From: Amphiscolops sp. MND2022
Taxonomy: Eukaryota
NCBI GenBank assembly: GCA_964187785.1
Contig: OZ076409.1
Coordinates: forward strand, 79,424,001-79,488,000
Length of the DNA stretch: 64,000 nucleotides
Direction: 5' to 3'
Each line of letters opens with the position of its first letter. Position 1 is the stretch's first letter. Below are positions 37,520 to 64,000 of this stretch, in pieces. The notes under the pieces were generated by a model, which saw only the letters and a program-made list of their open reading frames with translations, made no database searches and was not told the origin of the DNA. Position numbers and translations under genes: made by a program.

Positions 37520-40500
37520 TGGTCAAATTCAACAAATTGTAAGGTATTTGTTTAGGTATTCAAACCTTCCACTATTTTTTAGACATTCTATCAGTTCAGT
37601 ACAGTTACTTTTGTCATACAAGTTGAATTTTCCTGTGGACAGATTTCTTGTAACAAAATTCCGGCAATTGAATAGAAAGTGGGTGGCAGTTTCTTCAGTT
37701 ATGCGACAGGAGCACATCGGACTGGCAGTCAAGCTTCTATTATAGGCAAAGTTTTTCAGGGATGGATTGATGTCCAGGAGTACTTCGATGGCGGTCCTCA
37801 TGAGTTCCTTCTGTAAAGAGAGTTTTATCAAAGCGGGGTCAGTGTCTACTCGAGGAACAATTTTTTTAAGGTTAGTTTCAAAGTCTGGGTATTGCCATCT
37901 GGAATTCCATTGTCGCAGTATATGGGTCCGACAAATGGCTTCAGTGTAGCTCAAGGGGTCAGTTAAGTCAAGGTTCTTTTTGTTGTAGAAAGTTTTGAGT
38001 ATGTTTCTGTGGATAGTCACAAAAGTTACAGTTGCTTCTTTTTTTTTAGAAATAGCTCTGATAAAAGGTCTCTCTGCTGTAGTACTTCGGTGAGGAACTT
38101 AGCGGATATATTTTGTCAAACAATATCAATAGGTGGGGTGCCCAGTATGACTTCAGCAGCACTCTCCTTTGGATTACACCTGGTTTGGAGTATACTTCGA
38201 TTGACAAAAGCTTGGAAGGTTTGCAGTTTTGCCGCATTTTTTTCTACCAAACAGGCTCACAGTACAGTAGAGTTGGTAGGATCTGCGTTTTGTTTAAAGT
38301 AGCAAGTGTGTTCCGGGACAGACCCTATCTACTAGTACAATGATTTCGTAGCTCTCTCCATTGGTTCTTGCAACGGGCTACCACCAGTTCCGTGTGATCC
38401 TTGAAACTGCAAGCATTATCGACAATCAAGCCAATATTTTAGTTTTGATTTTATTTTTGCATGCTTCATTTCCCAGTGTGAAGACAGAAGTCGTCAGTCC
38501 ATCGGAGTTTATGTGCAATATTTCCGTTTTGGAACCATTTATCTGAATTTTCCATATCCTGCACCATTTTTCGACGATGTTGAGGTTCCTTTGTACAATT
38601 TGAAGAGAGCTTTCCACAGGAGCGGACAAAAGTATTTGCGAATCATCTGCGTACTTGAACTTGATACCTGTGGTATTTGTAAGCATTTCTGCTATATAAA
38701 ATATGAAGAGTAGTGGTGAAAGTACGCTGCCCTGGGGAACACATTGTTTCGGCTGTACTTGGAGACTGATTCGCCCTCTAGTCGTGTTCTGACCAACCGA
38801 TTTTTGGAGAAAGTTTGGAGAATCTTGAATAAGGGTCCGCGAATACCTGCTATCCAAAGTTTAAACAGTAAACCATTATGCCAGGCGCTATCAAACGCTT
38901 TCTCAAGATCGAGAGTTATTAGGGCAGCTTTCAACTTACTTTTCTTCATAATTTCGAATTCGACTTTCAATCGGAAAAGTGATCTCGTTGTGTTCTTGTT
39001 TTGCATGAATTCTTCTTGTTCTTGGTCGATCAGATTATTTTCCAACATGAACGTCTTCAGCCGGTTGTTTAGTATTCTCTTGAAAAGTTTTCCCATGTGA
39101 CTACTAATTGAGATCAGTCTATATGCGGAAGGTTCACTGTAATTAGGTTTCAATGGCTTCTTCAAGAAGAGTACTCGTGTTTCGTTCCATGGCCAACTCG
39201 CAGAACTTAGGCAAATCTTGAAGAGGTTAATCAGGTAGGTTCTGAAAGTTGGGAATGTCATTGCAATCATTTTCGGGTGAATGTGAGGATCGCCAGGAGA
39301 ACAATTCATTTTGCTGACTGTCTCAATGACATGATTCAACTCTCTCGAACTGATAGTCCCATTGAATCTCAAATTTCGCAGTTCTACAACCTCAGACTTT
39401 TCCAAGAATTCAATCATTTTCAATTTACCATTAACCGCTTTCTTGAAATCTTCATCGAAATTTTTTTCTTTCAGATGCTTGCCGCTGAAGAAGGTGTCAA
39501 GAAGTATTCGTGCCTTTTGATCACAATCAAAACAGAGTCCAGATGTAGACTTTAGTGTGGATGGAATCTGATCCTTATTTGTTGGAAAGACCCTCTTGAT
39601 ACTTTTCCAAAACGCATTTCCGTGTTTTGCTTGGTTGACGTCTTGCAATTTTCTGAGGGTCCACAGTGAAGCTGCGGTGCTCAGTGTTTCTTTGAATATG
39701 GCTCGAGCCTTCAGGAGTGCCTCATGGTTTTGCGGCGTCGATTTCCTTTTGTATGTCTCCCGAGTGATCGTACTTCATTACTGAGTTGTGTCAGCTGATC
39801 ATTCCAGAAAGGTTTGCTATGTTTCGTAATTGATTTTGTGGGAATGCATTCTCGGTTTACATCGTTGGTTGCTTCTTTCAGATGCATCCATGCTGCAATG
39901 GGGTCTTTGAATTATGAGTTGTCCGGAAAAGACATATCACGAAGTATGTCTTCTAAGCTGTCCCGCCATTTCTTCCAATTAACGTCTTTAAGTTTGAACG
40001 TAGTAACTTTTTCAGTTGAGTACGAGCTCGGCAGAACAAATTTGGCGTATACAGGGACGTGCCCACGACTGGGGTACCCAGTTAGTAACTCCGCGTCAGT
40101 GTCAGTAAAAAAGTTGACTTCCAATTTGTAAGTTGGTCGGAAGTCATACATAGGTCGATAACTGAGCTACCATTGACAGAGTAAAAAGTTTTTTCACCAT
40201 TGTTTAGTATTTTCACCAGCTTGTTCTCGATATAATGCTCCAGAGTGCCACCATTCTTGTTATTTCGTGAATCTCCCCATAAAGTGCTTCTGGCATTGAG
40301 ATCTCTTACGAAGAGAACTCCTTTCATGTTATTTTTTTTGCAAAATTGATTGGACTTCCAAAAGTATTGATAAATTCCTCCATTTCGTTCACGTCCTCCA
40401 GGGGTATGTAGGCGGTAGCAACAAGGATGGATTGTTTGCGGTATTGTACAGCACACCAAAGAGAGTCGAACGTTTCATTTTTCAATTCTTGTATTTCGCA

Positions 40501-41660
40501 GCAACTGGTGTCTTTCGGTACTGACAGTGACACACCACGTTGATTTAGTCCTCTACATCTCAAGAAAGTGCGGTAGTTCGTGCAAAAGTTTTCGGGTACT
40601 TGTTTCTTGGTTTCGTTCAACACAACAAAATCAGGTTTCTGATCTTCGAAATATTTGTTTAGAAGTAGTTGTTTGGCATTTGAAAGTCCGGTTGGATTTA
40701 GCTGCAGTACAGTAGTAGAATTCCTGTTAGTCATTACTTGTATAGAACTCAACTCTTTCTTGTAAGTGCTTCGGAAGGTGAACGTTTCTTTGGTGATAGA
40801 CTTTCCTTGCATGGTTTAGGTAAGCTTCACAGTTGGGATCGTTTGAAGCCTGTCTTGATTGGCAATTTGCACATGTGGGTTCTTCTGAGTTACAGTCTCC
40901 AGTGCTGTGATTTCCTGCACATTTGCCACTTTTTGGAGCGCTCTTGCACGTTTTGGCTATATGCCCGAAGTTCTGGCAATCATAGCATCGGACAATTGGT
41001 ATTCTCTCCACTTCAATGAACTCATTTGTTCGGAAGTATTAATCGTTTAGAAAGATTCCATTTGTTATTGCTCTTTCGATGTCATTTCGGTTGGGAAAAT
41101 CAATTTTGACAGTATTTAGGGTACTTTTGTCTTTTTTCACAAATCTACGAGCAATAGCATCGGGGAAGCTCTCTTGTAGTAGTGCAGTCATTTTGGAGTC
41201 CGTGAAAACGTCTTCTTTCGGGACGTCTTTAATGATAGCGGAGTGATTCTTTTGCAGCTTTCGTGGTATCCTACAAATAGTTTCTGTGCCCATGAAGTTG
41301 ATTTCCCTAATTCCTCGATTTCTTTGGATTCTTCGTGGGACGCGAATTCCAGATGTTTAAGGCCCCTCGTTGTTCTGAATGCATATATCAATTCCTTTTT
41401 CGGGAATGCCGTGGAGAAACTGCGTTTGATGTCTGTGCTGTTTTTGAAAGACGGATCTGCGTTCTCGATTAGGAGCACTGCTGTAACATCTTGCTCAATT
41501 GTTGCATTTTGTGTTATCGCCTTAGACGTTCCTGTCGATGCAACTGCGGCATAGGTTGATGCTATCTTTCCACTGCACTTTAGACAGATCAGCGTCAATA
41601 TTACGTACATCTCCCTCAGACAACAAAACTGGAGTGTCATTATCACTTTGCAGGTCATGA
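37520..41660 (-). mobile_element. Near full-length decayed LINE, I/Jockey/R1 group (ORF1 with CCHC knuckles; ORF2 APE-RT-CCHC)
   Basis: ORF1 RCYDCQNFGHIAKTC..CAGNHSTGDC..CANC; endonuclease VLNET, DLNARSTLWG, SVIDL; RT YRLISISS, LDLEKAFDSAWH, VPQGSVLSPLLF, KYADD; C-terminal CSCRITEETATHFLFNC; many frameshifts. Confidence 0.9.
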
Positions 41661-42886
41661 TCTTTTAAGATCAAATGGATCTGAGAATGACCGTGTTCAA
41701 ACAGCCCACAAACAATGACGCAAGATTGGCGTCAAAAATGACCAGGGTTAAAACAGCCCAATACTGATACGACGTCATTATGATGTCGACAGTGACCGAA
41801 AAGAAAAACAAACAAAAGCCGACGTTAGCGAAAATTAACGTAATCAAAACTGTGACAAAAAAAATTGAAGTTGGATAATCGCTAAGGAAATTGACGTAAT
41901 CAAATTGGTGACAAAGAAAATTGAAGTTGGCTAATCGCTAACGAAATTGACGTCAGCAAAACGTTGACATTTTTGGTCAAACGAATTAATTCGATTCGTG
42001 GCCAATAAAACCGCGACGTTGGCAAAACGTCAACTCCTGGGATTACAAAGGAATTAAAAGACAGCTTCAAAGCCCTCCCAAAGATTGCTATACCGAATCA
42101 CAGAGTGGTACCGGAAATCTCACATTCCTTTGGGAAAGCGTACAACCCTAAGAATCCTCTCTTCAATTTCGACAACCCCACGAGATCTCTTCGTCCCATG
42201 ACAGTGGCCCTGTCATAGTCCGCGCCCAGCCTGGAGTGTGCTTGCCAAGAGGCGCAGTTTGGCCGTGATCATGAATGCATTATGAAAACAGTTACACTAC
42301 ATTATTAAACTGAAACAAACTGTGACAAGTTAAGACCATCAAAATCTAAAGTGATGACAGTAGAATTCTAATCGTTTTCCTGCAAAATACAACCGATACA
42401 TATCATTGCAAGTAGCCACCGCAGAAGATTGAAACTACGTCATATTTAAAATAAAAGGAAACAAAATAAATCGATAACCAATTACTTCCCTAAAATACTC
42501 TCTTCTATTTTATAAAGCCCTCGAGATCCATTCGTCTCATGACAGTGGCTTACCTGCCACTGTGGTAAAAGAGTTGAACGGGACAGTTTACACGGCCATT
42601 CTTGCACCAAAAAAGCTGGTCGCTTCCCACGTCATGGTATTCTCAATTATCTCATAAAGCAGAAGTTGGAATCTCTCGATTTGCCTTCAATGCTCCAATC
42701 GCGCGGACTGTACCGAACTTATGCCAAACGCCCAGACGGTGTTACCGTGATTCCGTGGGAAATGGGTAAACAGCTGGTGTGGGATGTCACGGTTGTTGAT
42801 GCTCTTGCACCCAGTCGCCTGAATCATGGCTCTATATGCAACCCGGGAACCACCGCCACCGAAGCTGAAGAGGGTAAAATTGGGGT

Positions 42887-43999: not shown

Positions 44000-44665
44000 T
44001 TTCTGGTCGAAAGGACAGAGGTCGAACCTTTTGATCGAATTGCTGGGATCGAATGGAATGCGGTCGAATTTTATCGTATTTGTTGTATGGCTCGGTCGCT
44101 TCGCTCCCTTCGCCAAGTAGCAACATTGAGGCATGGCCATAATGGCACGTCGCTCCGCTTCGCTTCGCTCCTGCATTTAGGGCACTAGGGGTATGTGAAC
44201 ATATCTGACTACGTTTTAAAAATTTCGATCCGAGTTGTTTCGATCCCATTCAAAAAATTTGGTATGTCGACCTGAGGACTAACTCTGATTTTCGATCCCG
44301 TTCCTTCGACCTATTTCCGCCCACCCCGAAATTTTCTGGTCGAAAGGACAGGGGTCGAACCTTTTGATCGAATTGCAGGGATCGAATGGAATGCGGTCGA
44401 ATTTTATCGTATTTGTTGTATGGCTCGGTCGCTTCGCTCCCTTCGCCAAGTAGCAATATTGAGGCATGGCCATATGGCACGTCGCTCCGCTTCGCTTCGC
44501 CCCTGCATTCAGGGCACTAGGGGTATGTGAACATATCTGACTACGTTATAGAAATTTCGATCCGGGTTGTTTCGATCCCATTCAAAAATTTGGTATGTCG
44601 ACCTGAAGACTAACTCTGATTTTCGATCCCGTTTCTTTGACCTACTTCCGCCCACCCGAAATTTT
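44000..44665. repeat. Tandem duplication, ~333-bp unit, 2 copies
   Basis: TTCTGGTCGAAAGGACAG... occurs at 44001 and 44334 with highly similar continuation. Confidence 0.9.
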
Positions 44666-44956
44666 CATCACGCGTCACTGTAAAATGCTCTGTCGTTCGC
44701 ACGACGATCAACGTTCTGGCAGCTTTTTGAAGCAACGGTTTTTAAGGGCTCTTCAGATCGGCAATGCGGCCTGTGTTCTAGGAAGTGTGAGCGACAGAGA
44801 TGCGTTCGAAGAAATTTATCACATATAGTTTATTTTTTAAACCTCTATATCATTGCAGCTTTTAAAAAAGTTTTTATCGGTCGGCTGGGATAGTGGCTTG
44901 TATGAGTAGTTTGTTCGTTGTATAACAACCCAAGCTCGACATGATTGTGAGAAAAT

Positions 44957-45036
44957 AGCCATTACAGGACTCCAACCTGCATCTCAAGACAGATCTAGCT
45001 AGCAGTCAAGCGCCTTAACCCTTAGACCAAATGGCT
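44957..45036 (-). pseudogene. tRNA-Ser(GCT)-like sequence, copy 1 (pseudo-tRNA or SINE head)
   Basis: Acceptor AGCCATT/AATGGCT, GGTTAAGGCG..GACTGCTA, long variable region, T-stem GCAGG/CCTGT. Anticodon stem pairs poorly and the T-loop is TTGGA rather than TTCGA. Confidence 0.6.
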
Positions 45037-45214
45037 TATTTAATCTCACCAATCAGTCGACTCATCACTAACAACGCCGTTGTTATATTATCCCCTTCTA
45101 ACTGAAGCTGATGCCACCCAGCTCCCAGTTGAACACAACACAACTGGGGATTCAAGCCACTTATGTAATGGCTACCAGTATAACAACCCAAGCTCGACAT
45201 GATTGTGAGAAAAT

Positions 45215-45294
45215 AGCCATTACAGGACTCCAACCTGCATCTCAAGACAGATCTAGCTAGCAGTCAAGCGCCTTAACCCTTAGACCAAATGGCC
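45215..45294 (-). pseudogene. tRNA-Ser(GCT)-like sequence, copy 2
   Basis: Repeat of copy 1 at a 258-bp offset, within a duplicated ~165-bp unit. Confidence 0.6.
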
Positions 45295-46780
45295 TTTTTA
45301 ATCTCACCAATCATTCGACTCATCACTAACAACGCCGTTGTTATAGTTGTTTTTTTTTGTTTCTGGTCTACTGATATAGTGGCTAATTCAGCAGTAGAGT
45401 CTGATTTATTTTTTCACTTTTTCCTGTCGTGGCCACTTTCAATTAATACTCTCCCATTAGTGATGGCTTGCCCCAGGTGAAGAAATTATACTCGATAAAC
45501 CTCTTTACCATCGATTGGCTTAAAACGTGGAGCCGCTAGTAGAAGCTAACGCCTAAGATCTAATTCCATACGCCTGTGAGCTTATGCGTACAATCTAACA
45601 TGAGTTAGAAAAAAATGAAATAACGCAGAAGACGTGGAGGCTTGAAATAACGTCTTCTTGAGAGAAGGCATTGGCATAGCTGTTGCATGCTTGCAGGCCC
45701 TCGGCGTTGAAAAGGCCTACTCCAACTCGATCGCTGCGCGACTTTAGCTTTCGCTAAGATTTCTTATGATTGACCTCTATTTGCCGTGGTCCATACCTCA
45801 TAAAGGGTGCGAGCAACTGTTGTTTTTCCATGGAAGCTACATAGGAAGACTACAAAGACTGTTTAAATCTACCACAAACCCGGTGTTAAACAACCCGATG
45901 AGTGGTCTTGGCGTCTCTCCTGCATCCTTATTAGCACTTCCCGCCTTTTTGGCCACAGTTTTTGGTGCGAGTGACTTTCTCACGACAATTTTCTCGGAAA
46001 CACTCGAAGATATATCTGATAGAGAAAAAAATGTATCAATGATTGTGCATTCCCTTCATTGATATGGAGGCTTGTAGAGACGCCACTTATTAAAAAAGAC
46101 ATCGTTGACCCGTTCTGATATTGCCTCATTTCAATCACTAATTCATTCAAAGCAAATAATTCACTGTGAGAGTAGGTTATTTACACCTCTTCAACATGTG
46201 TGCCATCTCTCAAGCCCTCCCTTTAAATGATGATCAACATAGCACCAGATTAATGACGTCAATCTATGTTTCAAATCTATATACTTTGATGTTTGGTTGG
46301 TTGTTTTTTTGTTACTGGTCTGACATAATGATACACATGGCACTTGATTGATGACGAAGATCCATGATATCTGATAGAGGAGAAGAAAAAACAAAAAAGA
46401 AGGAAAAGGAAAAGAGGTAAAAAAAAGTGGAGGAAAAGATTATAATTAAGCTCGAAGAGATAATGCAAAGTGTAGGTGAAAGCTTTCAACTAGCAATTCC
46501 CCAAATATTGTTTAAAAGTTGTTTCACAAGAATAACCTGAAATGGTCTGTATTCAGTTTTTACAAAATTTTTGCTCGCAAAAAATGGCCACTATCAATGA
46601 CGTTCCTCGATCGATTAGACATGTGACCTTTGCCAGATATTGATAATCTCAGAGATTTTACTATTCCTGGTTCCAATGAGTTTTTTATTTAAAACTTTAT
46701 TGTGTGCCTTATCTCTGATGGGTTTTTGATGTCGCTTTTGAATTACTCTTGTGGTTTCTTTCAGAAGCAGGTGGTCCATC

Positions 46781-49700
46781 ATGAGTAGTAAACTTCGCAA
46801 ACAAAATACTATGACCGACGAGGAACGGGCGGAATACCTCAAAATCAACGAAGAAGAGCTGCTTTTTGAATTAGATGAGCAAGAGTTAGAGGACCTTGCT
46901 TTGTTCTTAGATGATCTTGACCCAGAGGTGAGTACTTTTCTTGTATAAAAGACGATAGCTGAAGTATGTCAAGTGTTCTCCGGATTCCGTGCGAAACGAA
47001 TACACTTACCGTCAAAATTTCTTCTGAGTCCTTTTGTAGTAGCACTACAGCATTTTCTCTCTTGAATGAATGTTCTTTTTTTGTCGAAAACCTTGGAAAT
47101 TAAACTCCTCCCCCTCAGTCTCTGAATGGAAATGCACGACATCCTGATGTTGCTGGCTATGCTCAGTGACAAGTATGACGTACTCAATGAAATCTTACCA
47201 CATGCCTATGATTCAACCAGGCAATTTCGAAGAGGAGAGCTACCAATAGCCCAGACTCGACTCTAAAAGACATGACTATTTCTTGCAGATGTGGAAGCTG
47301 CAATATCTTTGAAAAACTGAAACTAACTTAAAACTCGGATTATCAAAGGGGGAAGTCCTGAAGGCCATTCTACTAAATGGCTTTGCACATTACTTTCTTG
47401 AAAAAAAGGGAAAATTTTAGTTCGATGTCTTTTTCGTTTTCTTGGGAAATGGACAATCTTGGTTTTCTGGAGCAAGCTAAGGTAAGTTCACACCCCGCGT
47501 TTTGCTGAAAGAAACGTGTTTGCGAAAGTTTGTCGTCGCATTCTAGTTTCTGTTTCCGGTACCGCCGCTTCGCGGCCACTTCGTGCAGGGGCTTGTACTA
47601 ACCAGAGCCGCATATGCGGTAAAGGAGTCGGCTTAGGTCTTTTTCCTTCTGACTCGCTCCAATCCCAATCATACCACTTTATTGGAATTGCACACATAGG
47701 ACCATACTATGGTGAAGAAAATGACTGTCACAGTCATTTTCTTCACCATAGTATGGTCCTATGTGTGCAATTTGCTGGGATATTCACCATATTATGGTCC
47801 TATTATTTTTTCCTATTATCATTTTTATGGTCCATATTATTTTCTTGACCATAGTATGGTCCTATGTGTGCAATATTGCTGGGATGTGAGAAACCCCTAA
47901 ATTAACCCAAAAATGGCCAAAAAACAGCCATTTTTCGTCTTTTTTGACTTTAGCTAAAACTGTTCATACGATTCGAACTAAAATTTCTACGGTAGAAATT
48001 TTAGTTCGAATCGTATGAACAGTTTTAGCAAAAGTTGAAAATGGCTGTTTTTTGGCCATTTTTGGGCTAATTTTGGCTATGTTTCTCACATCCCAACCAT
48101 ACGATTTTGATGCCATTGCACATATAGGACTATTATGAGCTAGAATGACTGTAGAAAATTTCGTTCGAATCGTATGGACAGTTTTTGAGAAAATCGAAAA
48201 AAGGCTAATTTTGGGCTAATTTTGGCTATGTTTCTCACATTCCAGTCATACTATTTTGATGCCTTCGCGCACGCAGGGGCCCCTTTGGGTGTAGAATGAC
48301 TGTGCAAAATTTCGTGAAAATCGTATGGACAGTTTTTGAGAAATTTGAAATTTTCATGAAAAGGTCGGGAAAAAAAACAGCACGATTGCATAAGTAGTCG
48401 AAAATTTTTTCCGACTCCTAAAAAGTATTGTTTGGTTTTGATGCATAAGGTCTTTGGTGCATAAACAAAAATGCAGTTCTGGCTGCACGTGACTTGTCAG
48501 TGTTGGTGGGGGAAACTGCTTCCTGAAAATGTGCGCAGGGTCCTTAAGGAAGCTGGCATGAAATCGATGAAGAAAAAACGTTGCTCTATGCAAAAAATAG
48601 AAAACGTAGATCGAATTTGTCAAAAAATATGCCAGTTGGAGAGCACATTTCTAAGTTATATTGTCTCTGACGTTACAAAAATAAACATGACGGGCTAAGC
48701 TTGGTGATATGGGGTTGCGTGACATGAAATGGCATTGGGCAAACATGCAAGCTCGACGGTGTCTTAGACAGTATGTCGCGCTGTTAGATTCACAATGGTA
48801 CTTTGCTCGACACTGGAGAATACTTGAAATGGAGCCCAATTTCTTAGAAGATAATGATCCCAAAAACATGTCACGACTAGTACGTGAGTGGTTCAATCCG
48901 GGTGGAGTGACAGTAATTGGCTGGCCGCCTCCATTACCAAACTTGAACTCAACTGAACACCTTGGGCATGCTTCAAAGCAGTGGTTAATGGTTTTATTAA
49001 GAAAAGTATATTAAAGAATATTGGGTTCGGAATTTTGTTACAATTCTGTGAGGCATTGTATGTCGTGGGTTTCTTCGATTTAAGGCTTTCTATCGCCCAA
49101 AAAGAGTAAAATGCTCGTTTTACTCGTGGAATTTCTTCCAGGCATGAGATCAATCTCTCAGAGTGTAGATTATCAATTTAACATTGAAGAAGGTTGTAGA
49201 TATATATGTTCCAAGATTAAGACATGCCTCAATTCTATTAACATCATGAAGTTTCCTGACTATTTCAGAACAACGCTTTACCAGCGTGCGACAGGACACG
49301 ATACCATACCGAAAAGACACCCACTGGTTATGACAGGGATGGTTTGTTGAACTATATTGATCGACTAGCTGACGAGTATGTTGAGCCTGAAGGAACTGTT
49401 CCATACACAGGCGAAAAGAAAGGTATTTCATTCAATTTATCACTGTAATGCTTTATTTCTGCCTAGATTTAGTCGTTAATTTTCTTCAGCGCTCACTAGT
49501 ATCTCGTAGAATCTGGCGAATCTTATTGATTCATGAATGATATGTTCGAAGATGTTTAGGTAAAATATGGCAAGCGCCGGAAAAACCGATACCAAGAGAT
49601 GCTGAAGAGTTAGAAATGGACTTCAAACTTGATGGCGAAACTTGGGAGCATGCCTTTGAGACCATCACCGACAACGATTTGATCGACTTAGCATGTAAGT

Positions 49701-52700
49701 CTTTCTATAAATTGCAGCAATAATTCTTTTTTAATTGCTAATCTACATACACACATGCCACGTGAGTCATTGTGCCCAACTGCTTTGTGTTACGCGTCAA
49801 AAGCCAGAGCTTGAAATAAAATGTGTAAATAAAATAATTTTTCTCCAAAAAAGCCCCCTCTTCAAACTTTTCCTATATTCCGAGCTGCTCATGCTTCAAG
49901 CGGAGTGCCGACTTTTATATGCTTCACAATTTAAACATTGTATTCTACTTAATCTACATGCATTTGTATTTCAGCTATTCTGGGGTTGCATCAAATGGTG
50001 GACCAAAGACAATACTGGGCTGCACAGACGGCCATCAAAAAAGGAGACTACCAACATAACGAAGTCTCAGGTATTTCACTTGAAGTTTTTCAACCAAACG
50101 TCATCAAATGAAGTCTTCGCTAACCCACTTTTTTCTCTACAGCGCTGATTCCACATGGTAAGTTGTGATGTCGTCGTTTGACCGGTTGGTTTTAACGATG
50201 GCGAAACTGGAAATATGAGGGCCCATCACATTAACTGTGTGAAACACTGACATGCACTCGCCATCTGGTTTTTCGTTGGCACTCATCCGCTCTAACCCAA
50301 CAATAACCTGCCTATCTCTTCGGCCTAAATTCATTGATTGGAGCCATTAACTTCAATAATTACCACAAGTTAGTAATTACAATTTTTCTCCAGCTTTTAA
50401 TTAGGTATCATTTTCCTCTTTTGGGAAAAATGTTCAATCTCATTAATAGGTTCAAAAGGTTGCTGTATGTTCCATAGAGTTTTGTGAGCGTCAAATCTTT
50501 CAGTAACCGGATTTGGTTTTTGAAACTCCTTCTAATTGCTATCACTAACAATAGAATTGCTTCACATCGGCTTTTGCTATTTCGTGTTTGCCAGCAATAT
50601 GCAGCCTGGTCGTTTTTCTAAACTGATTTTGTGAAAAACAATTTCATAAAACACCCTTTTCGATAAAACTATCAGTGAATCAGGAAAAATTCTCTGATTA
50701 TATTTGTAGTTCAACTCGAATTTAATTTTCTGTCTCAAGTCAAAAGCGTCGTTATGCTTCTCTTGATCTTTGGAAACTCTGTTTAGCAGATTAGGATATT
50801 TTTGTATTAGTTTTTATGACAAGCTGGCTGATATTTGCAGAGATGCCCTGTTTTTCTGTGCCTGCCAGTCTGGACCCCGAAGACGTGAACAAAACTGATG
50901 TTCAGCTCACCATCCAAATGGTGAAGGACAATGACCCCAACTGTACAGAGATCAACTTCAACAACATACCTGTCAGTACCCGTTCTAGCATTACTTTCAC
51001 AAGCCAAAAACAATGGATAAGAAAATTGGTTGTTGATCTTTCAGAAAATCCCCAAGTATCAATATACAGAGTTCTTGGAGGCCCTTAAAACGAACACGAA
51101 CGTTGTGAAGCTCAATCTAGCAAATACTGGAATGGATGACATTTTAGCTTATGTGAGTTTGTTTTTACTGGGTAGTTGTTCAAATTGATACCTGCATGTA
51201 TTAGTGGTAACTCTCTGAGTGATAGGAAGATAATTTGATGCTTAATTTGCTCCCTACCCGTCTTAATATATTGAGACCCGAATCATAGCAGGCCCTTGAA
51301 GCAGTTGATTCATTCCATACTCAGCAGTTGTCAAAAATGATCAAACTATTGCAACTGGTATAATGAGTATTTTTAGGCTTTGGCCGATGTGTTGGAAATG
51401 AATACTACCTTGACAAGTGTCAACATTGAAAGCAACTACGTCACAGGGCACGGAGGACTCACTGTAAGAACTGGATAATCTTACCATTTTTTTTCAACTA
51501 ATTGAACCACTTTACGACGTATTTTGATTTTAGAGAATTGCTGAGATGGTGGAGGAAAGCTTGAATATCCGCGAACTCAGATTTTGCAATCAGGTTTGGC
51601 AGTGTTCTACCGGGAATTGTAATTTTAGGGCCGTTATATGTAGATACTAAGTTTCATTGTTTTGGAAAAATTTTTTTCCGTGTTTCTTGGTTAACTTTTT
51701 TGTAACTACGATACCTGAAAAAGTTTCATCGAGTAATAATCACTTTCTAAGGAACTGTAGTTACGTGAAATTCTAATGTATGCCTCTTCTTTCTTTCAGA
51801 TTTTTGCACATTCAAATTCAAAACAATTTGTCTGGCACTATCGAGCCTTTGTGGCCTCCAGTGTGGTGACATGAATTCAAAAACGGTTCCTGGCTATTAA
51901 TCATGGGTTTGCATATACAAACGGCTTCCTACAATATTTTTCATTTCAGTACAATATTGCTGGTCAGAAATGTGAACTACGATTCGCGGAAATGCTAGAA
52001 GCGAATAAAACAATTTTGAAGTTCGGGTACAACTTTCAACTGCCAGGACCTTGCAGCAGAGCCAGAAACGCCTTGAGAAGAAACATCGAACTGAGTAGGA
52101 TTTATTCGGAATTCGTTACAATTTTTTAAAAAGAAGCATCACACCGTTATCTATTTTGAAAAAGGGACACGTCCATGGATGTTTTTTGTGTCAGTTGTTG
52201 CTTTTCTTTTCTGAAAGTTGCTGCTATGATCCACTGGTTTCATGTTTCGAAAACTAATTGAGCAAGTTCTCAACTAATGTTAACAAAAATATGAAAATGG
52301 AAAGCAAAATAATAATTGAGATTCTACAAACTTTAGATGATTAGATCAAAAATTCTAGTTTGATGTTCAAATTCTATAGTCGGGATTCATGCCAAGCAAC
52401 ATTAGATTATATTGATCACTAGCGTTATTGTGAAAAAAATGCTATCTACCGCAAGTCGAGAACAAAATAGCTAACTGAAATAGACACATTTTGTTGCACG
52501 GTTGTTTCAAAAAAAGTTGATAACTCTCTGGCAGTACATTGAGAGTTATCAACCTTTTTTGAAACAACTGTGCAACCAAATGTGTCTATTTCAGTTAGCT
52601 ATTTTGTTCTCGACTTGCGGTAGATAGCATTTTTTCACAATAACGCTAGTGATCAATATAATCTAATGTTGCTTGGCATGAATCCCGACTATAGAATTTG

Positions 52701-55700
52701 ATCATCAAACTAGAATTTTTGATCTAATCATCTAAAGTTTGTAGAATCTCAATTATTATTTTGTTTTCCATTTTCATATTTTTGTTAACATAAGTTGTGA
52801 GAACTTGCTCAATTAGTTTTCGCAAACATGAATTTCAGATGCTAGATTGCTGTTCAAAAGTGATGAACAAATGAGTCGAGTTTTAGATATTTTTTCACTT
52901 TGTCGTTCATCTCGAAGTGTCTCCAAGCGTTTAGAACATTTATGTGATGAATACTTGCTACTTTTGACCCATGATTTTAAGCTGTGGTTCTGAACTTGGT
53001 TTTAATTTTTTGATTTTTCTGCTAGGTTGCGGTTGAAAAGTGATAACCCTTTCAGTCGTGTGAATTCTGATATACGCTGTTTTTCTGTTCACATGGAACT
53101 AATTAGTCGCTTCCACATTCTCTGTCTTCGATCTCAGCTTGTCTTAGAGCACTTGAACGTCCATGTGATGAGCACTCGCTACTTTTGACCCATGATAAGC
53201 TCTGGTTCTGGACTTTTTAAATATATTTTTATTTTCCGCCCAATTATAATGGGAGAGGAAAATCATGATCTGTGTTGCACTACGATACATATGCCGCAAC
53301 GAACTAGCAAGATCTTACTAGTTCGTTGCGGCATATGTTTCGTAATGTGCGTTTTTATTTTCCGCCCACATATAATGGGGGAGGAAAATCATGATCTGTG
53401 TTGTTATTTTCCGCCCACATATAATGGGGGAAGAAAATCATGATCTGTGTTGCGTTTTTTTTTACAAATTCTGCCAAATCTCCACGATCTCCATAAATAG
53501 TCGAGTAACTAAAATAGTCAAGTAGTGGATAGTCAAGTCCGTTTTTTTCTAGCTCAGTTTTATGTGGTATGATGCAGAAAACAATCCAATTCGTGGATAA
53601 AAACAGAAGAACAAGGCGGAAAATATCCCGGTGCTTACCGGGCGTTTTGTTTTTTTTTTGACTTTTGATGCTAGGTTGCTGCTACAAAGTTTGACAATTT
53701 CAGTCGTGTAAAGCTGATCTTCGCTGTGGTCAGCTTTTGTGGGTTTTGATCACATGGACTCGAGCTTCAGATATTTTTTGCACTTTATCTTCTATCTCAA
53801 TTTGCCTCCGAGCGCATTGAACGTCCATGTGATGAATACTTCCTACGTCCGACTCATGATGTTAAGCTGTGGTTCTGAACTTGTTCGTGTATTTTTATTA
53901 TTTTCTGATGCTAGGGTTTCTGTTGAAAAGCGATGACGATTTCAGTCGTGTAAATCCTGATAAACGTTGTGCTTTTCTGATCACATGAAGCAAATGACTC
54001 GAGCTTCAGGCATTTTTACACTTGCGATAAGCAAGTGTTATGATGAAGTGCGGGTGATTTTTCCGCGCGAGAACTCTCCTTTCAGCCGGCAAATCGCACA
54101 CAGTTCAGGCGTTCGTGATCTAGTGGTAAGATGCTTTGCTTTTCAACCCAAAGGGTTCGTGTTCGAACCGGTGCATATGCGCTAATTTTTAATATTTCTG
54201 CGATAGCAGGAATATTATTGAAATATCAAGAATCCAACTTTTTTTCAGTACAATTATCAAGATATTGAGTACCTACCAAAAAATTCAGGTGAATCGTTCG
54301 GCAGTGAGTTGTAAGCGTGAGAATTCAATTTCTCAAGCTGCCGACAACAATTCCTTTCTCGTGCGATGGAACGAACGAGTGGTAATTATTCGTCCGCCGA
54401 GAGCTTCGCCTGCATTTAAATGCGAATGCGAAACTTCGTCTACGCTCAGTAGTTGTATATTTTTCAATCCGAGAAGAATTGAAGGCGGTGTAAACTTGTA
54501 GAGTGAATAATTGTGCGCTATATAATTGATCAAGATATGATTCTATTATTGAATATGAAAGCCTGAAAGCAGAAATTTTTTATACACGGATTCCGAAGCA
54601 GGTTTCCACTTGTTTCGGCACTATGAGGCCTCCCCCTTTCGGCTTTGAGACTTTTTTCCGAAAGTTTTGTAACCTCCCCTCAATTTTTTTGATATTTTCA
54701 ACAGAACGAATGGTAAACAATTCTAAAGGGTCCCTTCTTTCAGATTTTTTGGCACTATCAGACTGTTCAAAATTCTCGAAACGAAACGTTTTGCGAGCAT
54801 AAAGGACCCCTCAGGGTTTTCCTCACTATGTGACTTACCGGCAGTAAAAAAATTCGTCAGTTTTTCTTTTTTCAATGGTTTTGGTTGGGGAAGATGGGTT
54901 TTTTGCTGTTTCCAGTTGGCTAAAATGGTTTTCGAGTATATGCGGCCCCTTTGGGTTTTTAATGTCCTTTTACCCTTCGTTCTCCGTATGTTATTGATTA
55001 TTTGGTTTTCTCTTCAAAGTTCGCAACTTCACAAATCTTTGCGGAGCATGGCTTCGCCTCTTTTACATTGTCGTTCATCTCGAATTGCCTCCAAGCGCTT
55101 ATAACGTCCAGGTGATGAAAACTTGCCATTTTTGACACATGATTTTAAGCTGTGGTTTTGAACCTGTTTTTATATGTATATATATTTTCATTTTTGCTTC
55201 TGATGCTGCGTTGCTTCTGAAAAGGGATGACGATTTCAGTTGTGTGAATCCTGATATACGCTGTGGTTTTCTGATCACATGGAGCAATTGAGTCGTGCTT
55301 TAGATATTTTTTCACATTGTCGTTCATTTCGAATTGCCTCCAAGCGCTTGGAACATCCATGTGATGAATACTTGCTACTTTTGACCCATGATTTTAAGCT
55401 GTGGTTCTGAACTTGGTTTTATTAATTTTGATTTTTCTGCTAGGTTGCTGTTGAAAAGTATGACGATTTCAGTCGTGTGAATCCTGATATACGCTGTGAT
55501 TTTCTGATCACATGGAGCAAATGAGTCGTGCTTTAGATATTTTTTCACATTCTCGTTCATCTCGAATTGCCTCCAATCGCTTAGAACATCCATGTGATGA
55601 ATACTTGCTACTTTTGACCCATGATTTTAAGCTGTGGTTCTGAACTTTTTATATATTTGATTTTTCTGCTAGGTTGCTGTTGAAAAGTGATGACGATTTC

Positions 55701-58700
55701 AGTCGTGTGAATCCTGATAAATGCTGTGGTTTTCTGATCACATGGAAAAAATGACTCGAGCTTCAGATATTTTTTTACCTAGACGTTCATTTTGAAATGC
55801 CTCCAAGCGCTTAGCGCTTAGAACATCCATGTGATGAATACTTGCTACTTTTGACCCATGATTTTAAGCTGTGGTTCTGAACTTTTCATATATTTTTGAT
55901 TTTTCTGCTAGGTTGCTGTTGAAAAGTGATTACGATTTCAGTCGTGTGAATCCTGATATATGCTGTGGTTTTCTGATCACATGGAGAAAATGACTCGAGC
56001 TTCAGATATTTTTTTACCTAGTCGTTCGTTTCGAATTGCCTCCAAGCGCTTAGAACATTCATGTGATGAATACTTGCTACTTTTGACCCATGATTTTAAG
56101 CTGTGGTTCTGAACTTGGTTTTATTATTTTTGATTTTTCTGCTAGGTTGCTGTTGAAAAGTATGACGATTTCAGTCGTGTGAATCCTGATATACGCTGTG
56201 ATTTTCTGATCACATGGAGCAAATGAGTCGTGCTTTAGATATTTTTTCACATTCTCGTTCATCTCGAATTGCCTCCAATCGCTTAGAACATCCATGTGAT
56301 GAATACTTGCTACTTTTGACCCATGATTTTAAGCTGTGGTTCTGAACTTTTTATATATTTGATTTTTCTGCTAGGTTGCTGTTGAAAAGTGATGACGATT
56401 TCAGTCGTGTGAATCCTGATAAATGCTGTGGTTTTCTGATCACATGGAAAAAATGACTCGAGCTTCAGATATTTTTTTACCTAGACGTTCATTTTGAAAT
56501 GCCTCCAAGCGCTTAGCGCTTAGAACATCCATGTGATGAATACTTGCCCATGATTTTAAGCTGTGGTTCTGAACTTTTCATATATTTTTGATTTTTCTGC
56601 TAGGTTGCTGTTGAAAAGTGATGACGATTTCAGTCGTGTGAATCCTGATATATGCTGTGGTTTTCTGATCACATGGAGAAAATGACTCGAGCTTCAGATA
56701 TTTTTTTACCTAGTCGTTCGTTTCGAATTGCCTCCAAGCGCTTAGAACATTCATGTGATGAATACTTGCTACTTTTGACCCATGATTTTAAGCTGTGGTT
56801 CTGAACTTGGTTTTAATTTTTTGATTTTTCTGCTAGGTTGCTGCTGAAAAGTGATGACGATTTCAGTCGTGTGAATCCTGATATATGCTGTGGTTTTCTG
56901 ATCACATGGAGAAAATGACTCGAGCTTCAGATATTTTTTTACCTAGACGTTCATTTTGAAATGCCTCCAAGCGCTTAGCGCTTAGAACATCCATGTGATG
57001 AATACTTGCCCATGATTTTAAGCTGTGGTTCTGAACTTTTCATATATTTTTGATTTTTCTGCTAGGTTGCTGTTGAAAAGTGATGACGATTTCAGTCGTG
57101 TGAATCCTGATATATGCTGTGGTTTTCTGATCACATGGAGAAAATGACTCGAGCTTCAGATATTTTTTTACCTAGTCGTTCGTTTCGAATTGCCTCCAAG
57201 CGCTTAGAACATTCATGTGATGAATACTTGCTACTTTTGACCCATGATTTTAAGCTGTGGTTCTGAACTTGGTTTTAATTTTTTGATTTTTCTGCTAGGT
57301 TGCTGCTGAAAAGTGATGACGATTTCAGTCGTGTGAATCCTGATATATGCTGTGGTTTTCTGATCACATGGAGAAAATGACTCGAGCTTCAGATATTTTT
57401 TTTACCTAGTCGTTCATTTCGAATTGCCTCCAAGCGCTTAGAACATCCATGTGATGAATACTTGCTACTTTTGACACATGATTTTAAGCTGTGGTTCTGA
57501 ACTTTTTCTATATTTTTATTTCTGATGCTAAGTTGCTGCTTGAAAATAAAAGAACGATTTCCGTCGTGTGAATCCTGATAGTGTTAAACAAGTTTTTTTC
57601 TTGACTTGCCTCCGTCCGCTTAAATATTCTGTCCATGTGATGACGTCATGCGCTATGTGTGTTGTTAAAAATGTATGGATCTTGGTCGAGTGAGTCTTGA
57701 ATTTTGCTGTTATTTGACTTTCTAGATTTCATTTCTGTTTCCCCAAAAGTCTTGGATTCTGTTTTGATCAGCTCGATCTTGATCCGATAATTTTGCTCTG
57801 TGTTTTGGACATTCTCTTTTCTTTGGAAGAGTCAAACGAAATTGAGTAAATTAACCTTTGGCAAACGTGATGGTAAATTTCGGTATATTGAGTGAATTCT
57901 TATGGTTAGCTGTGGATTTTATTCCTCGTTACGTCTTAATGCAAGCTGTCATTTAATGAATACCTTCTGTTTATTCCTTATCTAGGGCAATATAAAATGT
58001 CTAATTTGGTTCAAAAAATCCATAAACTAGAGTCTCACTTTTCAGTATATCAAAGGATTTTTAGTTTGACAATTTCAGTGTTAGCAAACCAAATTTAGTT
58101 TCAATTGTCCGTGAAATAAATTCCATGAAGACCGCAAAATGTTGTTTGTCATTAGACCGAAGGATTGCACGTGGGGAAGTTGATGACCCCGTGAAAGAGA
58201 AGAAACCAAATCCTAAAATTCGAGACGACCTTTTGATCCAACTCGCCGAGAAGAAGCGACAGAACATTGCTGCTTTGCGGCGAAAAATTATTGAACTCGA
58301 GAAGGCAGGACTGGACAAGGAAGTTCCGGTCAGAAAGCCAGTGAAACTGACCCCAAATCATATTCGTCGACAGAGGGCCAAAATGGGAATTGTCTCTAAT
58401 GGTACGCAGCTTTTTTCTTTCCAAGCCGAGATATGGAGGTTTTTCTCTTCCTTCTTCTGGAAGAACTGTCTGAAGTCAATAAGAAAAATAGAAATTTTCA
58501 CATTTTTCACTTCAAGTAAGACTCATCTTTTTTTGAAAATTGAAAGGTCTACTTTTTCTGTGGTACTGTGTTAGAACGATCTCTTCGTTGAAAATGCTCT
58601 CGAAATTTACGTCGTAGTTTTTCTTTGCAGCAATTGACGATGCGTTGAAATCTAACTCGGACAATGAGGAAGAAAAAGAGAAGGATTCGGAAGAGAAGGA

Positions 58701-60480
58701 AAAAACCGACGAAGAGAAAGAAGACGAAGAGGCAGAAAAGGTAAATGGAATGTTTTTCCAAATTGTGCCTTTTTCATTGGCGAGGTTCACTTTTTCTCCA
58801 GTCCCGTCTTTTGTGACCTCGTGGTTTTCAAACTTTTATTCAAAACCCCTAAACTATGATGATGGATACGCATTTGATTCAATTCAAAAGACTCTTGTTC
58901 TGACCTTTTGTTCTGGCTTCATGCTTTTTTGAAGGAATACTTGGAAAAATGAAAAACGCATTTCTTTTAGTTCTTTATCTCGGAACTGAGAATAAACATC
59001 GTAAATGGCTTCATTTCAGGAATTCTTGATGTTTGCTTAGCAGTGTTTCTCGTTTCCAGTTTTGCAAGCTCAATATCTTCATACTGGAGATAGTTGCAGC
59101 AATCAAATGCACACATCCAAGAGGCAGAATAATGGGCTACATTTGAGTTGAAAACAAATCGGCGTCATGCGTTTTTTGACAAAAACGAGTTTCTTCTACT
59201 TTGATGTCCCTTATCGCGAAAGTGAGGATAGATGCGTCAAAATGTTTTCACTTCTGATGGTGCCAGGCTCTACATCGTTTTGACCTACGTTACAATGTGC
59301 TGAAGTTGTGTTTTTGGTAGAAAACTCGAAGTTTCAATTTTCCTTTAGTTTTCCACTTTTGTCTGCTTGATATCATTAAATTTAAGTTGAACTTCAGTTG
59401 TTGAAGCAACTGACGCTAAAGCAACCATGTACACAACCATTCAAAACTTCAGAAGTGTTAGTTTAGAAAGTATCTCAAAAAATTCGGCTTCGTGCTTTTT
59501 TTGACGGTAGAGACTTGAACATATTGAATGGTTAATTCAACAAGTGAATTTTTGCGAGTCTTGCGCCTATGTTTTGAAATTCTGTGAAACGATTATTTTA
59601 TGTGATAATCGCATTTCTTGAATGATGCATATTGTCTGTGTAGGAAGATGGGCAAAAGGGCGAGGATGAAGAAGACGGAGAAAAAGAGGAGAAAGAAGAT
59701 GAAGAAGAAAAAGAGGATGAAGTAAGTAGCACAGTGTTCATTCTATTTGACATAACTGTTTTGACATTATTCTGTTGCTTTTCGTAATTTTCCAAAATGT
59801 ATCCCAGCTCATTGAGTGAAACAATTCCGTTCATTCAAGGTAACAGATGATACTATTCTGCTTTTGCATGTTTATTCCCCGAATAGTCTAAAAACATTGA
59901 AGTTTAGCCTGTTTTATTCCGAAACAGTTCTCATGGAAAAAATCATGAGGATATCAAGTTTTAGACAGCACTGATCAGTCAAACCGACCTTTATGATATG
60001 ATTTTACAGGAGGAAGACGAGAAAGAGGATCAAAAGGAAGACGAAGGAGAAGCAAAAGATGATGGAAATGAAGTAGAAGATGAAAATGAAGACGACGAGG
60101 CGAAGAATAAAGAAGACGACGAAAAAGATGAGAATGAAGATGAAGATGGCGACGACGAAGCTGAGGAAAAAGATGAAGAAGCCGAAGAAAAAGACGAAAA
60201 CGCAGAGCAAGAAGGCGAAGCTGAGGAAGAAGCCGAAGAAAAAGACGAAGACGCAGAGGAAGACGCCGAAGAAAAAGACGAAGACGCAGAGCAAGAAGAC
60301 GACGCTGAGGAAGAAGCCGAAGAAAAAGACGAAGACGCAGAGGAAGAAAACGAAGAAGCCGAGGAAAAAGATGAAGACGAAGAAGCCGAGGAAAAAGATG
60401 AAGCAGAAGAAAAAGACGAAGCCGAGGAAAATGAAGAAGAATCAGAGGAAGATGAAGACGACGAAGAAGAGGAAGATTGA
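46781..60480 (+). CDS. TMOD: Tropomodulin/leiomodin-family actin-binding protein, 14 coding exons, 660 aa: 46781-46927, 49269-49422, 49560-49694, 49975-50070, 50143-50157, 50841-50971, 51045-51152, 51377-51463, 51534-51593, 51950-52094, 58156-58401, 58631-58740, 59644-59721, 60010-60480
   Basis: All introns are GT-AG and phases are consistent (1983 nt total). Tropomodulin motifs: LDDLDPE/NNALPA, VPYTGEKKGKIW, DLASILGLHQM, NDPNCTEINFNNI, LTSVNIESNYVTG, LKFGYNFQLPGP, NALRRNIELNRR. Exons 1-10 are high confidence; joining of exons 11-14 rests on splice sites and frame only. Confidence 0.88.
47690..48425. repeat. Interspersed repeat in intron 1 with internal tandem subrepeats and a fold-back centred at ~47991
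   Basis: TTCGAATCGTATG(G/A)ACAGTTTT repeated; perfect inverted repeat at 47953-48029, imperfectly extending to ~47880-48095. Confidence 0.75.
48480..48990 (+). mobile_element. Degenerate Tc1-family transposase fragment in intron 1
   Basis: NVRRVLKEAGMK..KKK and FLEDNDPKNMSRLVREWF...IGWPPPLPNLNSTEHL resemble the Tc1 motifs QQDNDPKH and WPxQSPDLNPIEHLW. Confidence 0.7.
52241..52830. repeat. Long near-perfect palindrome (~288-bp arms, ~12-nt loop) in intron 10
   Basis: CATGTTTCGAAAACTAATTGAGC...GATAACTCTC, loop, GAGAGTTATC...GCTCAATTAGTTTTCGCAAACATG; few mismatches. Confidence 0.95.
53231..53650 (+). mobile_element. Helentron/DINE-like element with a triplicated 5' head, inserted in the satellite
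   Basis: ATTTTCCGCCCA...GGAAAATCATGATCTGTGTTG three times; 3' GCGGAAAATATCCCGGTGCTTACCGGG hairpin; T-run insertion site; same family as 4072-4308. Confidence 0.7.
53278..53347. mobile_element. 70-bp fully palindromic CACTA-type mini-element
   Basis: CACTACGATACATATGCCGCAAC...GTTGCGGCATATGTTTCGTAATG with TG duplicated on both sides; the empty site GATCTGTGTTGCGTTTTT is present at ~53442. Confidence 0.8.
54109..54182 (+). pseudogene. tRNA-Gly-like degenerate sequence inside an inserted repeat (~54030-55050)
   Basis: GCGTTCGTGATCTAGTGGTAAGAT (A box) and GTTCGAACC (B box); stems pair imperfectly. Confidence 0.5.
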
Positions 60481-62049
60481 ATTTAAAGTGCTGGCAACTT
60501 CTCAAAGACTAACAGTGTATTTTGCAAGCAGAATGATAAGTGAATAATGACGTCCATCATTTGTTGATGAATTGCAGTAAATTCGGAGTAGATGGCAATC
60601 TGGTCATTCTCTTGAACTCTGTGCAGGGCAAAAAGTATTTTTACAGCTTGCTGTTGAGTTGCGCTTATGTAACCTTACTTCTATTTTGTTCGTTTATCAC
60701 GCTTCAACTGAATGAAAATTGAAATGAATATTTATTTAAATAGTTAGCTAATTGATCATTTCATTTGCAATTCAAATCTACACTTTCATTTTGTATATCC
60801 CTACTTTCCTCCAAGTTATTCATTCCTGTCTTGAATTAGACAACATCCAAGGTCAAGTTGACCGCGCAAGACTTGAAAGTGTTAGCGTATCTACACAAAA
60901 TAGAACAATATAAGCAACCACCTAAAGGCAGCTGCGGCTTATAATGCACAATTCTTAAGCAGTTTGCCTCACCTGGAAAAAATCAACTTCATTGTTATAA
61001 ATTTTTCGCGAGTTAAGGAAATGTCCTTTGAAAATCATGGCAAAATTTAACGATCTAGGTGGTTAATTTGTTCGAGGAAATTGTTCACGGTATGATCTTC
61101 GCATTCTGAGACACGATTTTCGTAAAAATTATCATGCACGCTTAGCACATGCAATATTGATCACATACGAAACTAGAGTAGAAATGCCCTCAAAAGGCTC
61201 AAGAATTTAAGCAATCACCCTCGTTAAATGAGGTGTTTATGACATAATTTGGCTGTAATATATATATCAGTTTAATGTACATTGCAGGGTTGATATGGAT
61301 ACTTCTCTCATGCAGAACCTTGATTTTGAAAATACCAAAAAATGCCCTTGAAGCTCTCAACATGGGCGAGCTAAGGTTAAGAAAATCATGATTTCAAAAA
61401 GAAGACACTGAAAATTGAAGTGCATACTGTCCAATAAACAATATCTTGAAAAACAATACTGCAGAACGAGTTGACTGGAAATTTTGAAATAGAACTCTCA
61501 CATGGCAAGTGAAACATTAAGATTTTCTGTGATTAGGGAGCTAAACCGTCATTGATGTAAGCTTAGTTGGGCAATGTTAGAATTTGTTCGGATGGTAGCC
61601 ATCTGAATATTAAAAATGAAACCTATACCATGAGAAAGTTGACTCAATCTATTGTCATCCCGCAGTGGACATACTTAGCGTTTCTATGGGGACAATCACA
61701 AATTTCTGAATTCAACGTTGTGTTTGGAAAAACTAGAATTAATTGTCCAAAGTTCGTGGCCCCAAGGAAAAAAATGATAAAAACTGACTTTCAGACAAAA
61801 GGATGCTTTTACTCGGCGCTTTTTGCGAAACAGAAAATGCCCGACTTTGACAGTGAGTTTTTAGTTAGCGCTTTTCTAGTGAAAAGGTCGTGACTATTAC
61901 AGTGGCTTGTTTCCTTTCGTAAGGCCAAAAAGCTCATTTTATTTACCACAATTTGTGCACTTGCACCATAAGTACTTAACATGTCATGATTCCCATCATG
62001 AAATCTGGGAGGATTCTACAAGAATCACTGGACCTACTCAGAAACGGAT

Positions 62050-63700
62050 GAATAACAATCACAAATGAGAGAGAGAGAGCCATCTTAACAACGAGCAGCA
62101 GAAAAAGCAAATAGAAATATGCACGACACAACTGAAAAAACTCTTAAAGATAACGGAATAATAGCACTCTAGTTCCACTTGACAAAGCTCACATCCACTT
62201 TAAAACCTCTCATCAATTTCGCTTTTATTGTTCAAAGTAACTAATTTTTCAATGATTGCTTTTCTCAGCTATTAAAGTAGAGAACTCAAGTGACCCGCAC
62301 TGAACATCCCATAAACATGAGTGCAATCATGATAAAAGTGTCTACAAATTATACTATAAAATGAGCGTCACCAAGCCTTTCTCACAGAACTACAACGCTT
62401 AGCCTTAGATGCGTACCCGAATATAAAAGCTCCAGCAGCTGCAGATGGTGACCCAGCAGTTGCAGCAGAAGACCGAGCTCAAGAACGTACTCGTCCGGTT
62501 AGAGAACCTTTCATCAATGGAAAACCTCTCAAACTAGAACGATTCCCTCTCACACACCCAGAAGATACAACAAGAGAGGATCTCTGCGCTAAAGCTGCTA
62601 GTCGTTTAATAGTAGCTCGTCTCTACCCAGAAGACGATGACAGAGCATTCGACGAACTTCGAGGTAGTTCCTCCAAAGTTTTATCCGGAATCGAGGAACT
62701 CACTAAGGCCCTGACCAAAGTTCAACAAGAAACTTGTAAATTGACTGACGAACTCAAAAAGATCAGAAAAACCCTTACTCAACTCTTAACCAACTTGGCA
62801 ATAATAATTGTCATAATATTAAAAACAACCAACAACAACAAAACGATAATGGAACAACTAAAACAACCGAAACAAAAATGGCTACAACTACAGTCGAAGT
62901 AAAAACTGCTACTTTGGATTCAATTGAAACTATAACCAACAACACTCACACAACCAACAACAAAACCGTAACAATCGACAGATTTCATGCGATCGCAATC
63001 GGAAAGGACAAAGCAAACAGTACCAAAATAGAGTTCAATCAGGACATGCACATTCGAATATTTACAACAAGTGTGTTCATACACCAGCAGCATGTTGATT
63101 TCGTCCAACATAAAGAGGAGCTGCCTCGCTCCCTCATCACCACGTCTCTACTGCACTTTATATAATCCAATGTCCTCACAGTATCAGATGCCGTCATCCC
63201 AACAAATGATGCCACCACAAATGATGCAACAACAGATGTATAACCAACAAAAGAACCAGAGCCAAGCGAACTACGTGAGCCACGTATAGTCCTCCTTCTA
63301 CTTTAGCTGCTATCAACGTATTATCTATTAACAAGCCTCTTACATAATTTTTTCCATTAACTTTAAACTTTTCATTTCCTATAAGAGCATTAATAGATAC
63401 TGAAGGCTTCACTAGTGCCATGCCTTCATATAACTTCCCTCTGTCATTTCTAACTATAATTCCCAAGAGAGCACCGTCAAAGTTGCTAATGGTGCTTCTT
63501 CACCGACCTTTGGCACTTTCAAAGCCATTCGTTTTGCCTATGAAACCTCTTGTGAAAACTTCATCATCCTAAAAACCATGAACCAAACGATACTTGGTTT
63601 GCCTTTCTTTGAAGAGAATGATATTCTGATTCAACCCAAATCACGCACCTTGAAATTACCGAACACTGCTTTACAGCTAAGAGAACGTATCCATTAAAAC
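62050..63700 (+). mobile_element. Decayed gypsy-type gag-protease fragment
   Basis: QRLALDAYPNI...FINGKPLKL, Gln/Asn-rich linker, protease-like ALIDTEGFTSAM (~63385) and ILGLPFFEENDILIQP. Confidence 0.65.
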
Positions 63701-64000
63701 GGATATATTAGTTCACTTCACTAGGAGTTTCAAATATCTTGCCGTACAACATTACCATTTGAAACAATTCCTAAAAAGCCCAACTAACTATACTCAAACC
63801 AAAACAAGCAGTTTTATTCACAACCTGGTAATTCAGGGCTTCAAATGAATTTTTTCTGAAAAAATAAACACGCTTGTTAAAGACTCGAATACCACAGTGT
63901 TCCCGAGTAAGGAAAATTGCTCGAAGGCAGAGAAACTTACTGGAATTCACAAAAATTTATGATGAAAAAGCAAAACCCAAATCAAATTAGAAAATAGACA

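Follow-up and report, generated by a model that had tools for sequence, protein, structure and literature searches.

Does a tropomodulin gene whose frame continues past the LRR domain encode a leiomodin-like nucleator of actin, or a tropomodulin that has gained an extension of another kind? The question is raised by positions 46781-60480 (+ strand) of the window, the whole 64,000-nucleotide stretch of DNA analysed here, where we model, from the sequence of 44500-64000, a tropomodulin gene of 14 exons with a single frame of 660 amino acids (aa). An earlier note on this DNA had singled out exon 11, and proposed a tropomodulin extended by a WH2-like motif, with a leiomodin-like architecture. Our reading, to which we give a probability of about 0.5, is that the gene encodes a pointed-end cap carrying a putative filament-binding helix, specific to its lineage, and a regulatory tail of acidic residues. 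The features of the gene are as follows.

46781-46927 (+): coding exon 1, with the start codon and the TMBS1 region (PF03250 at E 0.0012, under the cut-off when taken alone)
49269-49422 (+): exon 2, the ABS1 capping element (PF03250 at 42.4 bits, over the cut-off; Tmod1 42-92 at E 1.3e-5)
49560-49694, 49975-50070 and 50143-50157 (+): exons 3-5, the rest of ABS1, TMBS2 and a linker (TMBS2 by alignment to Tmod1-4)
50841-50971, 51045-51152, 51377-51463, 51534-51593 and 51950-52094 (+): exons 6-10, the LRR domain with ABS2 (alignment and structure-chain matches)
52095-58155 (+): intron 10, 6,061 bases, phase 1, with a weak donor
58156-58401 (+): exon 11, a basic linker, a conserved helix and a second basic patch
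58212-58304 (+): conserved block PK.RDDLL..LAEKKRQ.IA.LR.K..E.EK, aa 379-409 (orthologue alignment; predicted single helix)
58221-58286 (+): the WH2-like stretch inside the conserved block, aa 382-403
58353-58382 (+): second short basic helix, PNHIRRQRAK, before a [KR][LM]GI motif common to the paralogs (AlphaFold2 and alignment)
58631-58740 (+): exon 12, start of the acidic tail
59644-59721 (+): exon 13, acidic tail
60010-60480 (+): exon 14, last part of the acidic tail, with the TGA stop

Exons 1-10 encode a tropomodulin core in which TMBS1, ABS1, TMBS2 and the LRR domain are intact. It is 30-38% identical to ten other Tmods in an alignment, vertebrate and invertebrate members among them. 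The ABS1 element in exon 2 matches Tmod1, and a structure-chain search with it returns no leiomodin chain at E ≤ 10. TMBS2 aligns without gaps to Tmod1-4, and ABS2 is present in the LRR domain. The capping loop before the LRR (Tmod1 164-186) is present but diverged, with a short insertion. Set beside Tmod1-4, which combine PF03250 and the LRR, the four-site core is alike and ABS1 and TMBS2 are kept, so that the N-terminal capping region that the earlier note had taken to be retained is indeed there; from what is known of the family, such a protein would cap pointed ends. In the linker, exon 5 is a micro-exon of 15 bases (50143-50157); it preserves frame and phase and may be alternatively spliced.

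The protein differs from typical Tmods in what follows the LRR domain. About 300 residues come after the LRR cap, versus a median of 12 among 117 scored tropomodulin hits. A tropomodulin ends shortly after the LRR, and the modelled 660-aa form does not; a 370-aa form, produced by unspliced read-through into intron 10 to an in-frame stop 11 codons in, would do so. Seven long-tailed vertebrate Tmod models were considered as relatives of the extension and rejected: on a profile of the extension the best of them scores -0.7 bits (four of the seven were reported), compared with 23.8 and 14.3 bits for the two paralogs described below. Six of these seven mis-ended models diverge directly after NNDL, which is the site of intron 10 here.

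Is the extension part of the protein at all? Exon 11, with AG before it and GT after it, translates to KPNPKIRDDLLIQLAEKKRQNIAALRRK, in frame with exon 10 (51950-52094); it has 82 codons and a net charge of +12, and all 13 introns of the model are GT-AG. The donor of intron 10 is weak, as 79% of 470 background GTs score equally well on a matrix made from only 9 introns, and the donor of intron 11 is also weak on the same matrix. Together with a repeat-filled intron of 6 kb and the early in-frame stop, this is what one would expect if exons 11-14 were rarely or never joined and the main product were a plain tropomodulin of 370 aa whose frame stops within intron 10. We regard that as very unlikely, since the homology runs ungapped over the junction. 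Over 10 residues, the exon 10-11 junction scores BLOSUM 30 against an intronless paralog in the same genome and 34 against P0003, a paralog from another species, where the intron-10 read-through scores -6 and -5. Exon 11 matches the intronless paralog directly behind the paralog's LRR (E 3e-6), the joined model aligns to it as one stretch (aa 53-420), and exon 11 is kept in three other genomes. There is also no AATAAA or ATTAAA in the 800 bases downstream of exon 10, though the distal stop has none nearby either, the first being at 61433. The exon 10-11 join is thus well supported by homology, and we infer the splicing of exons 10-14; that the frame passes from the LRR domain through exon 11, as the earlier note had read it, agrees with the GT-AG borders and the ungapped paralog junction. 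Word-index protein searches did not find the spliced product, exon 11 returning only the window's own open frame (one of 124 candidates) and exon 10 no match. Within intron 10, a 233-base tandem repeat spans 55210-57580 (10.2 copies, 89% matches), and pieces related to it also lie upstream in the same intron.

Relatives of the extension are few. Beyond the window gene itself, exon 2, exon 11 and the LRR match nothing in the 1.07 Gb assembly but the intronless paralog, which lies on contig C10 and has 508 aa. Its predicted structure superposes on the Tmod LRR 1io0 at 1.1 Å, and it is an intact and probably retroposed gene. It lies inside a perfect tandem duplication of 6,959 bases without a mismatch (G000:C10:738701-752618, L023 and L024), which points either to very recent copying or to an artefact of the assembly. 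P0003, from another record, is 70% identical to it. A profile made from the three extensions and searched against 1.84 billion representatives identifies five proteins at E ≤ 0.001, all of them family members. Two are the paralog and the frame of the window itself; the other three are exon-sized frames with identities of 89, 58 and 57%. For the closest of these orthologous frames, the similarity begins and ends at the borders of exon 11. Among JGI metagenomes, 595 pattern matches gave 0 confirmed, and a protein atlas held no usable match for exon 11 and only Tmod/LRR clusters for the paralog end. In a tree from the core alone (18 rows: 17 of the 120 listed hits plus the window model, all Tmods with no leiomodin), the three full-length extended proteins group together with support 100/99, a grouping that long branches could bias. 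Their grouping on the core alone fits a single gain of the extension before the gene duplication.

The orthologues locate the constraint inside exon 11. Invariant in four orthologues are 22 of the 31 positions of the conserved block, versus 7 of 18 on its N-terminal side and 1 of 32 on its C-terminal side, so the earlier note flagged a peptide of real significance. None of the four varies in R..LL..L or LR.K, and the invariant residues cover the whole linker between them and all faces of the helix. RDDLL..LAEKKRQ.IA.LR.K is nearly invariant, and therefore likely a real binding helix. AlphaFold2 predicts for the window's exon-11 peptide one continuous helix at residues 19-55, with pLDDT 87-94 over residues 21-50. 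The helix has a Leu/Ile stripe made of L385, L386, L389, I397 and L400. We classify it as likely a constrained binding helix with WH2-like ends, outside the WH2 family.

That classification depends on how the helix compares with WH2 motifs, for which we number Arg as P1 and map the published definitions onto this numbering. The R..LL..[IL] start of the WH2 N-terminal helix is present in the window peptide, and to that extent the claim of a WH2-like motif stands; it does not extend to the spacing and the last residue, which are non-canonical, nor to the paralogs, where the motif is degenerate. Both paralogs keep the helix and its heptads, lack the R..LL..[IL] start, and have the WH2 consensus replaced (DRFFQQL...ILTK and ERQSAQM...ILER). 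The profile check suggested for the claim came out negative: PF02205 matches neither exon 11 nor a single one of six aligned family members, yet it detects three WH2s elsewhere in the genome over the cut-off. Published descriptions give the WH2 a length of about 17 residues, with a loop ahead of LKKV (10.1101/467431), and place its basic segment at P16-P19 (PMC13364712). Here the downstream Leu is at P19 (tetrapeptide P19-P22), versus P14-17 in four WH2s of this genome, and P8 is Leu in place of Ile. The tetrapeptides in the orthologues are LRRK, LREK, LRKK and LRAK, with a last residue that is always Lys and never Val or Thr. The linker, ten residues and invariant, has one helix-breaking residue in ten, versus 1/5 to 4/8 in the four own-genome WH2s, whose linkers vary. 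A profile made from four of the five PF02205 hits in the genome (L019 left out; L018 under the Pfam cut-off) gives exon 11 only 2.1 bits, a score equalled by 250 of 3000 shuffles; the same profile gives 20-31 bits to three of four held-out WH2s and misses the one with a short linker. A strict WH2 pattern has no match in the exon-11 peptide. The start RDDLL is shared with one recognised WH2 of this genome. Two tandem WH2 motifs (L015 and L017, G000:C6 about 54682200-54682400) occur in a single open frame of 140 aa.

The helix could still be a WH2/DAD-like motif of atypical kind, with a long linker, that takes hold of an actin monomer. The protein would then be a leaky cap or a weak nucleator of an origin independent of leiomodins, and the paralog would have lost the motif; we consider this possible but doubtful. 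The invariance of R..LL..L and LR.K in 4/4 orthologues speaks for it, and WH2-like borders of the conserved block, from R..LL..L to LR.K, count against the filament-helix reading. The motif matches a WH2/DAD outline of LLXXL plus basic residues, for which other last residues of the tetrapeptide are occasionally allowed (PMC12871907). The loose pattern R..LL..[IL]-x(4-11)-L[RK][RK], defined post hoc, is rare, occurring in 0.25% of 100,000 shuffles (1.0% with heptad positions kept). On Lmod1, exon 10 reaches 41.0 bits, slightly more than the 35.9-38.6 that it gets on Tmod chains, though its score on Lmod2 is lower (about 31). The predicted single helix is no argument against a WH2, because the free INF2 WH2/DAD peptide is also a single helix by NMR (PMC12871907). 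What weighs against an actin-monomer site is the silence of PF02205 on exon 11 and the six aligned members, the Leu at P19 and the constant fourth Lys (one orthologue having LREK), the low score on the genome's own WH2 profile, and the extension profile, whose five matches are all family members. No WH2, DAD, leiomodin or troponin chain in the PDB matches the extension at E ≤ 10. In addition, WH2 look-alikes of Sca2 that lie inside helical regions do not bind actin (10.1101/467431), and Tmod1 carrying the Lmod2 extension is a poor nucleator (PMC4571291). A complex prediction of the peptide with an actin of this genome, in which the alignment was unused (score 0.01, mark 0.34), is counted neither way. 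The actin used (L007:1498-2628, - strand) is intronless, somewhat divergent and 376 aa long, one of 35 actin-family matches.

We also tried a reading of the helix by troponin I, whose helix H1 it presumably resembles, and rejected it on the lack of any troponin PDB chain at E ≤ 10. The genome has two troponin-family exons, on contigs C5 and C3 (L025 and L026; PF00992, one over the cut-off), and the exon-11 motif was not seen in the frames neighbouring them.

The heptads suggest a different use of the helix, as a coiled coil for dimerisation or for anchoring to a non-actin partner, which would pair caps or fasten the ends of filaments to the membrane skeleton or a dense body, with the tail as a spacer. 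Hydrophobic heptad columns 30/37/44 and 40/47 are found in the window protein and in both paralogs, and the helix predicted in the paralog extension is 47 residues long (401-447). We find this unlikely, as the window helix has only two or three heptads with Lys within the stripe, and two orthologues are polar at columns 44 and 47.

Is the protein as a whole a leiomodin? The frame continues through three more exons, and therefore the motif is not C-terminal. About 260 residues follow it, and together with the missing PF02205 match this leaves no leiomodin-like architecture ending in a WH2. Leiomodin identity is rejected also on the retention of ABS1 and TMBS2 and the lack of a proline-rich region: the absence of a polyproline tract had been noticed before and holds, with six scattered Pro in the 82 aa of exon 11 and none in the tail. 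Lmod1-3 and the Ciona Lmod are like the window protein in that a Tmod-type LRR precedes a long extension containing helices and basic patches. They are unlike it in that the acidic stretch replaces TMBS2 in Lmod (PMC4571291) and is C-terminal here, and the extension has no sequence match to Lmod2 chains. Lmod-like LRR loop residues such as LANT also appear in the alignment in protostome-group Tmods, and are probably ancestral. The premise that leiomodins are vertebrate proteins is not strict, as Ciona has one (PMC10605842). What survives of the earlier proposal is an independently acquired, real extension on a tropomodulin, borne out by the sequence and the orthologous exons. The further step from extension to nucleator is weak. 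In the account of Boczkowska 2015 (PMC4571291), Lmod nucleation arises from loss of ABS1 and TMBS2 and from altered LRR loops, where eleven ABS2 residues matter for nucleation, and Tmod1 carrying the Lmod2 extension nucleates little; because of the latter, even a true WH2 here would probably leave the tropomodulin a non-nucleator.

The acidic tail encoded by exons 12-14 has 219 residues, of which 146 (67%) are Asp or Glu, with a net charge of -121 and no Trp, Phe, Tyr, Pro or Arg. These exons are supported by the window model, the orthologue matches covering exon 11 only; P0003 also ends acidic (33 of 59 residues). WCA activators end in an acidic stretch with a conserved Trp, and we rejected a WASP/WAVE-type WCA activator of Arp2/3 for a 219-aa tail with no aromatic residue. 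Insect troponin T offers a closer likeness, a long acidic tail on a thin-filament protein in a single lineage; its Glu-rich tail is needed for muscle function and is proposed to buffer Ca2+ (PMC7581897). The two proteins are unrelated, and the likeness is one of analogy only.

Under the main reading, a cap with a filament-binding helix, the core would keep its capping sites and cap the pointed end as known for the family, and exons 10-14, spliced together, would give the extended 660-aa protein. An extended linker of about 16 residues could carry the helix a distance of about one actin subunit along the filament. There it might grip the thin filament next to the capped end, on the side of actin or on tropomyosin, with the Leu/Ile stripe and basic flanks adding avidity and no need for the barbed-end cleft that a WH2 occupies. 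The tail, which likely modulates this grip, may shield the basic exon 11 or buffer Ca2+ as in insect troponin T, and the weak intron-10 donor may also yield the plain 370-aa isoform. Binding of the helix to the filament is likely, judging by charge, position and analogy; in Lmod2, non-WH2 regions of the extension bind filament sides (PMC13292838; PMC5638494). In a bolder version, which we hold quite unlikely, the protein would combine the cap with monomer delivery by a long-linker WH2-type helix, independently of chordate leiomodins, with a Ca2+-sensitive tail as the switch; if so, one invertebrate protein would do the jobs of both Tmod and Lmod.

For invertebrates outside tunicates, the length of thin filaments is considered to be set by plain tropomodulin and unrelated helpers such as Drosophila SALS (PMC9140763, PMC10605842). 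We found no report of such an extended invertebrate tropomodulin in the open-access literature, which contains few of the subscription papers. The two tropomodulin genes found in this genome each have an extension without known relatives and with a strongly constrained core. They amount to a natural experiment on how an extra helix changes a cap with intact capping sites, and bear on the question of how leiomodin-like functions originate. If the helix only adds grip on the filament, this is a lineage-specific refinement of moderate interest.

Elsewhere in the window we observe, by eye, four other groups of frames. At 13018-13924 (+), two frames resemble a zinc finger and a hAT transposase's C-terminal dimerisation region. 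An open frame rich in Lys, Pro and Ser at 14606-15055 (+) is like linker histone H1. Frame-broken open frames at 18595-24130 (+) look like a BEL/Pao retrotransposon, and fragmented frames at 37532-41664 (-) like a non-LTR retrotransposon with a zinc knuckle, endonuclease and reverse transcriptase.
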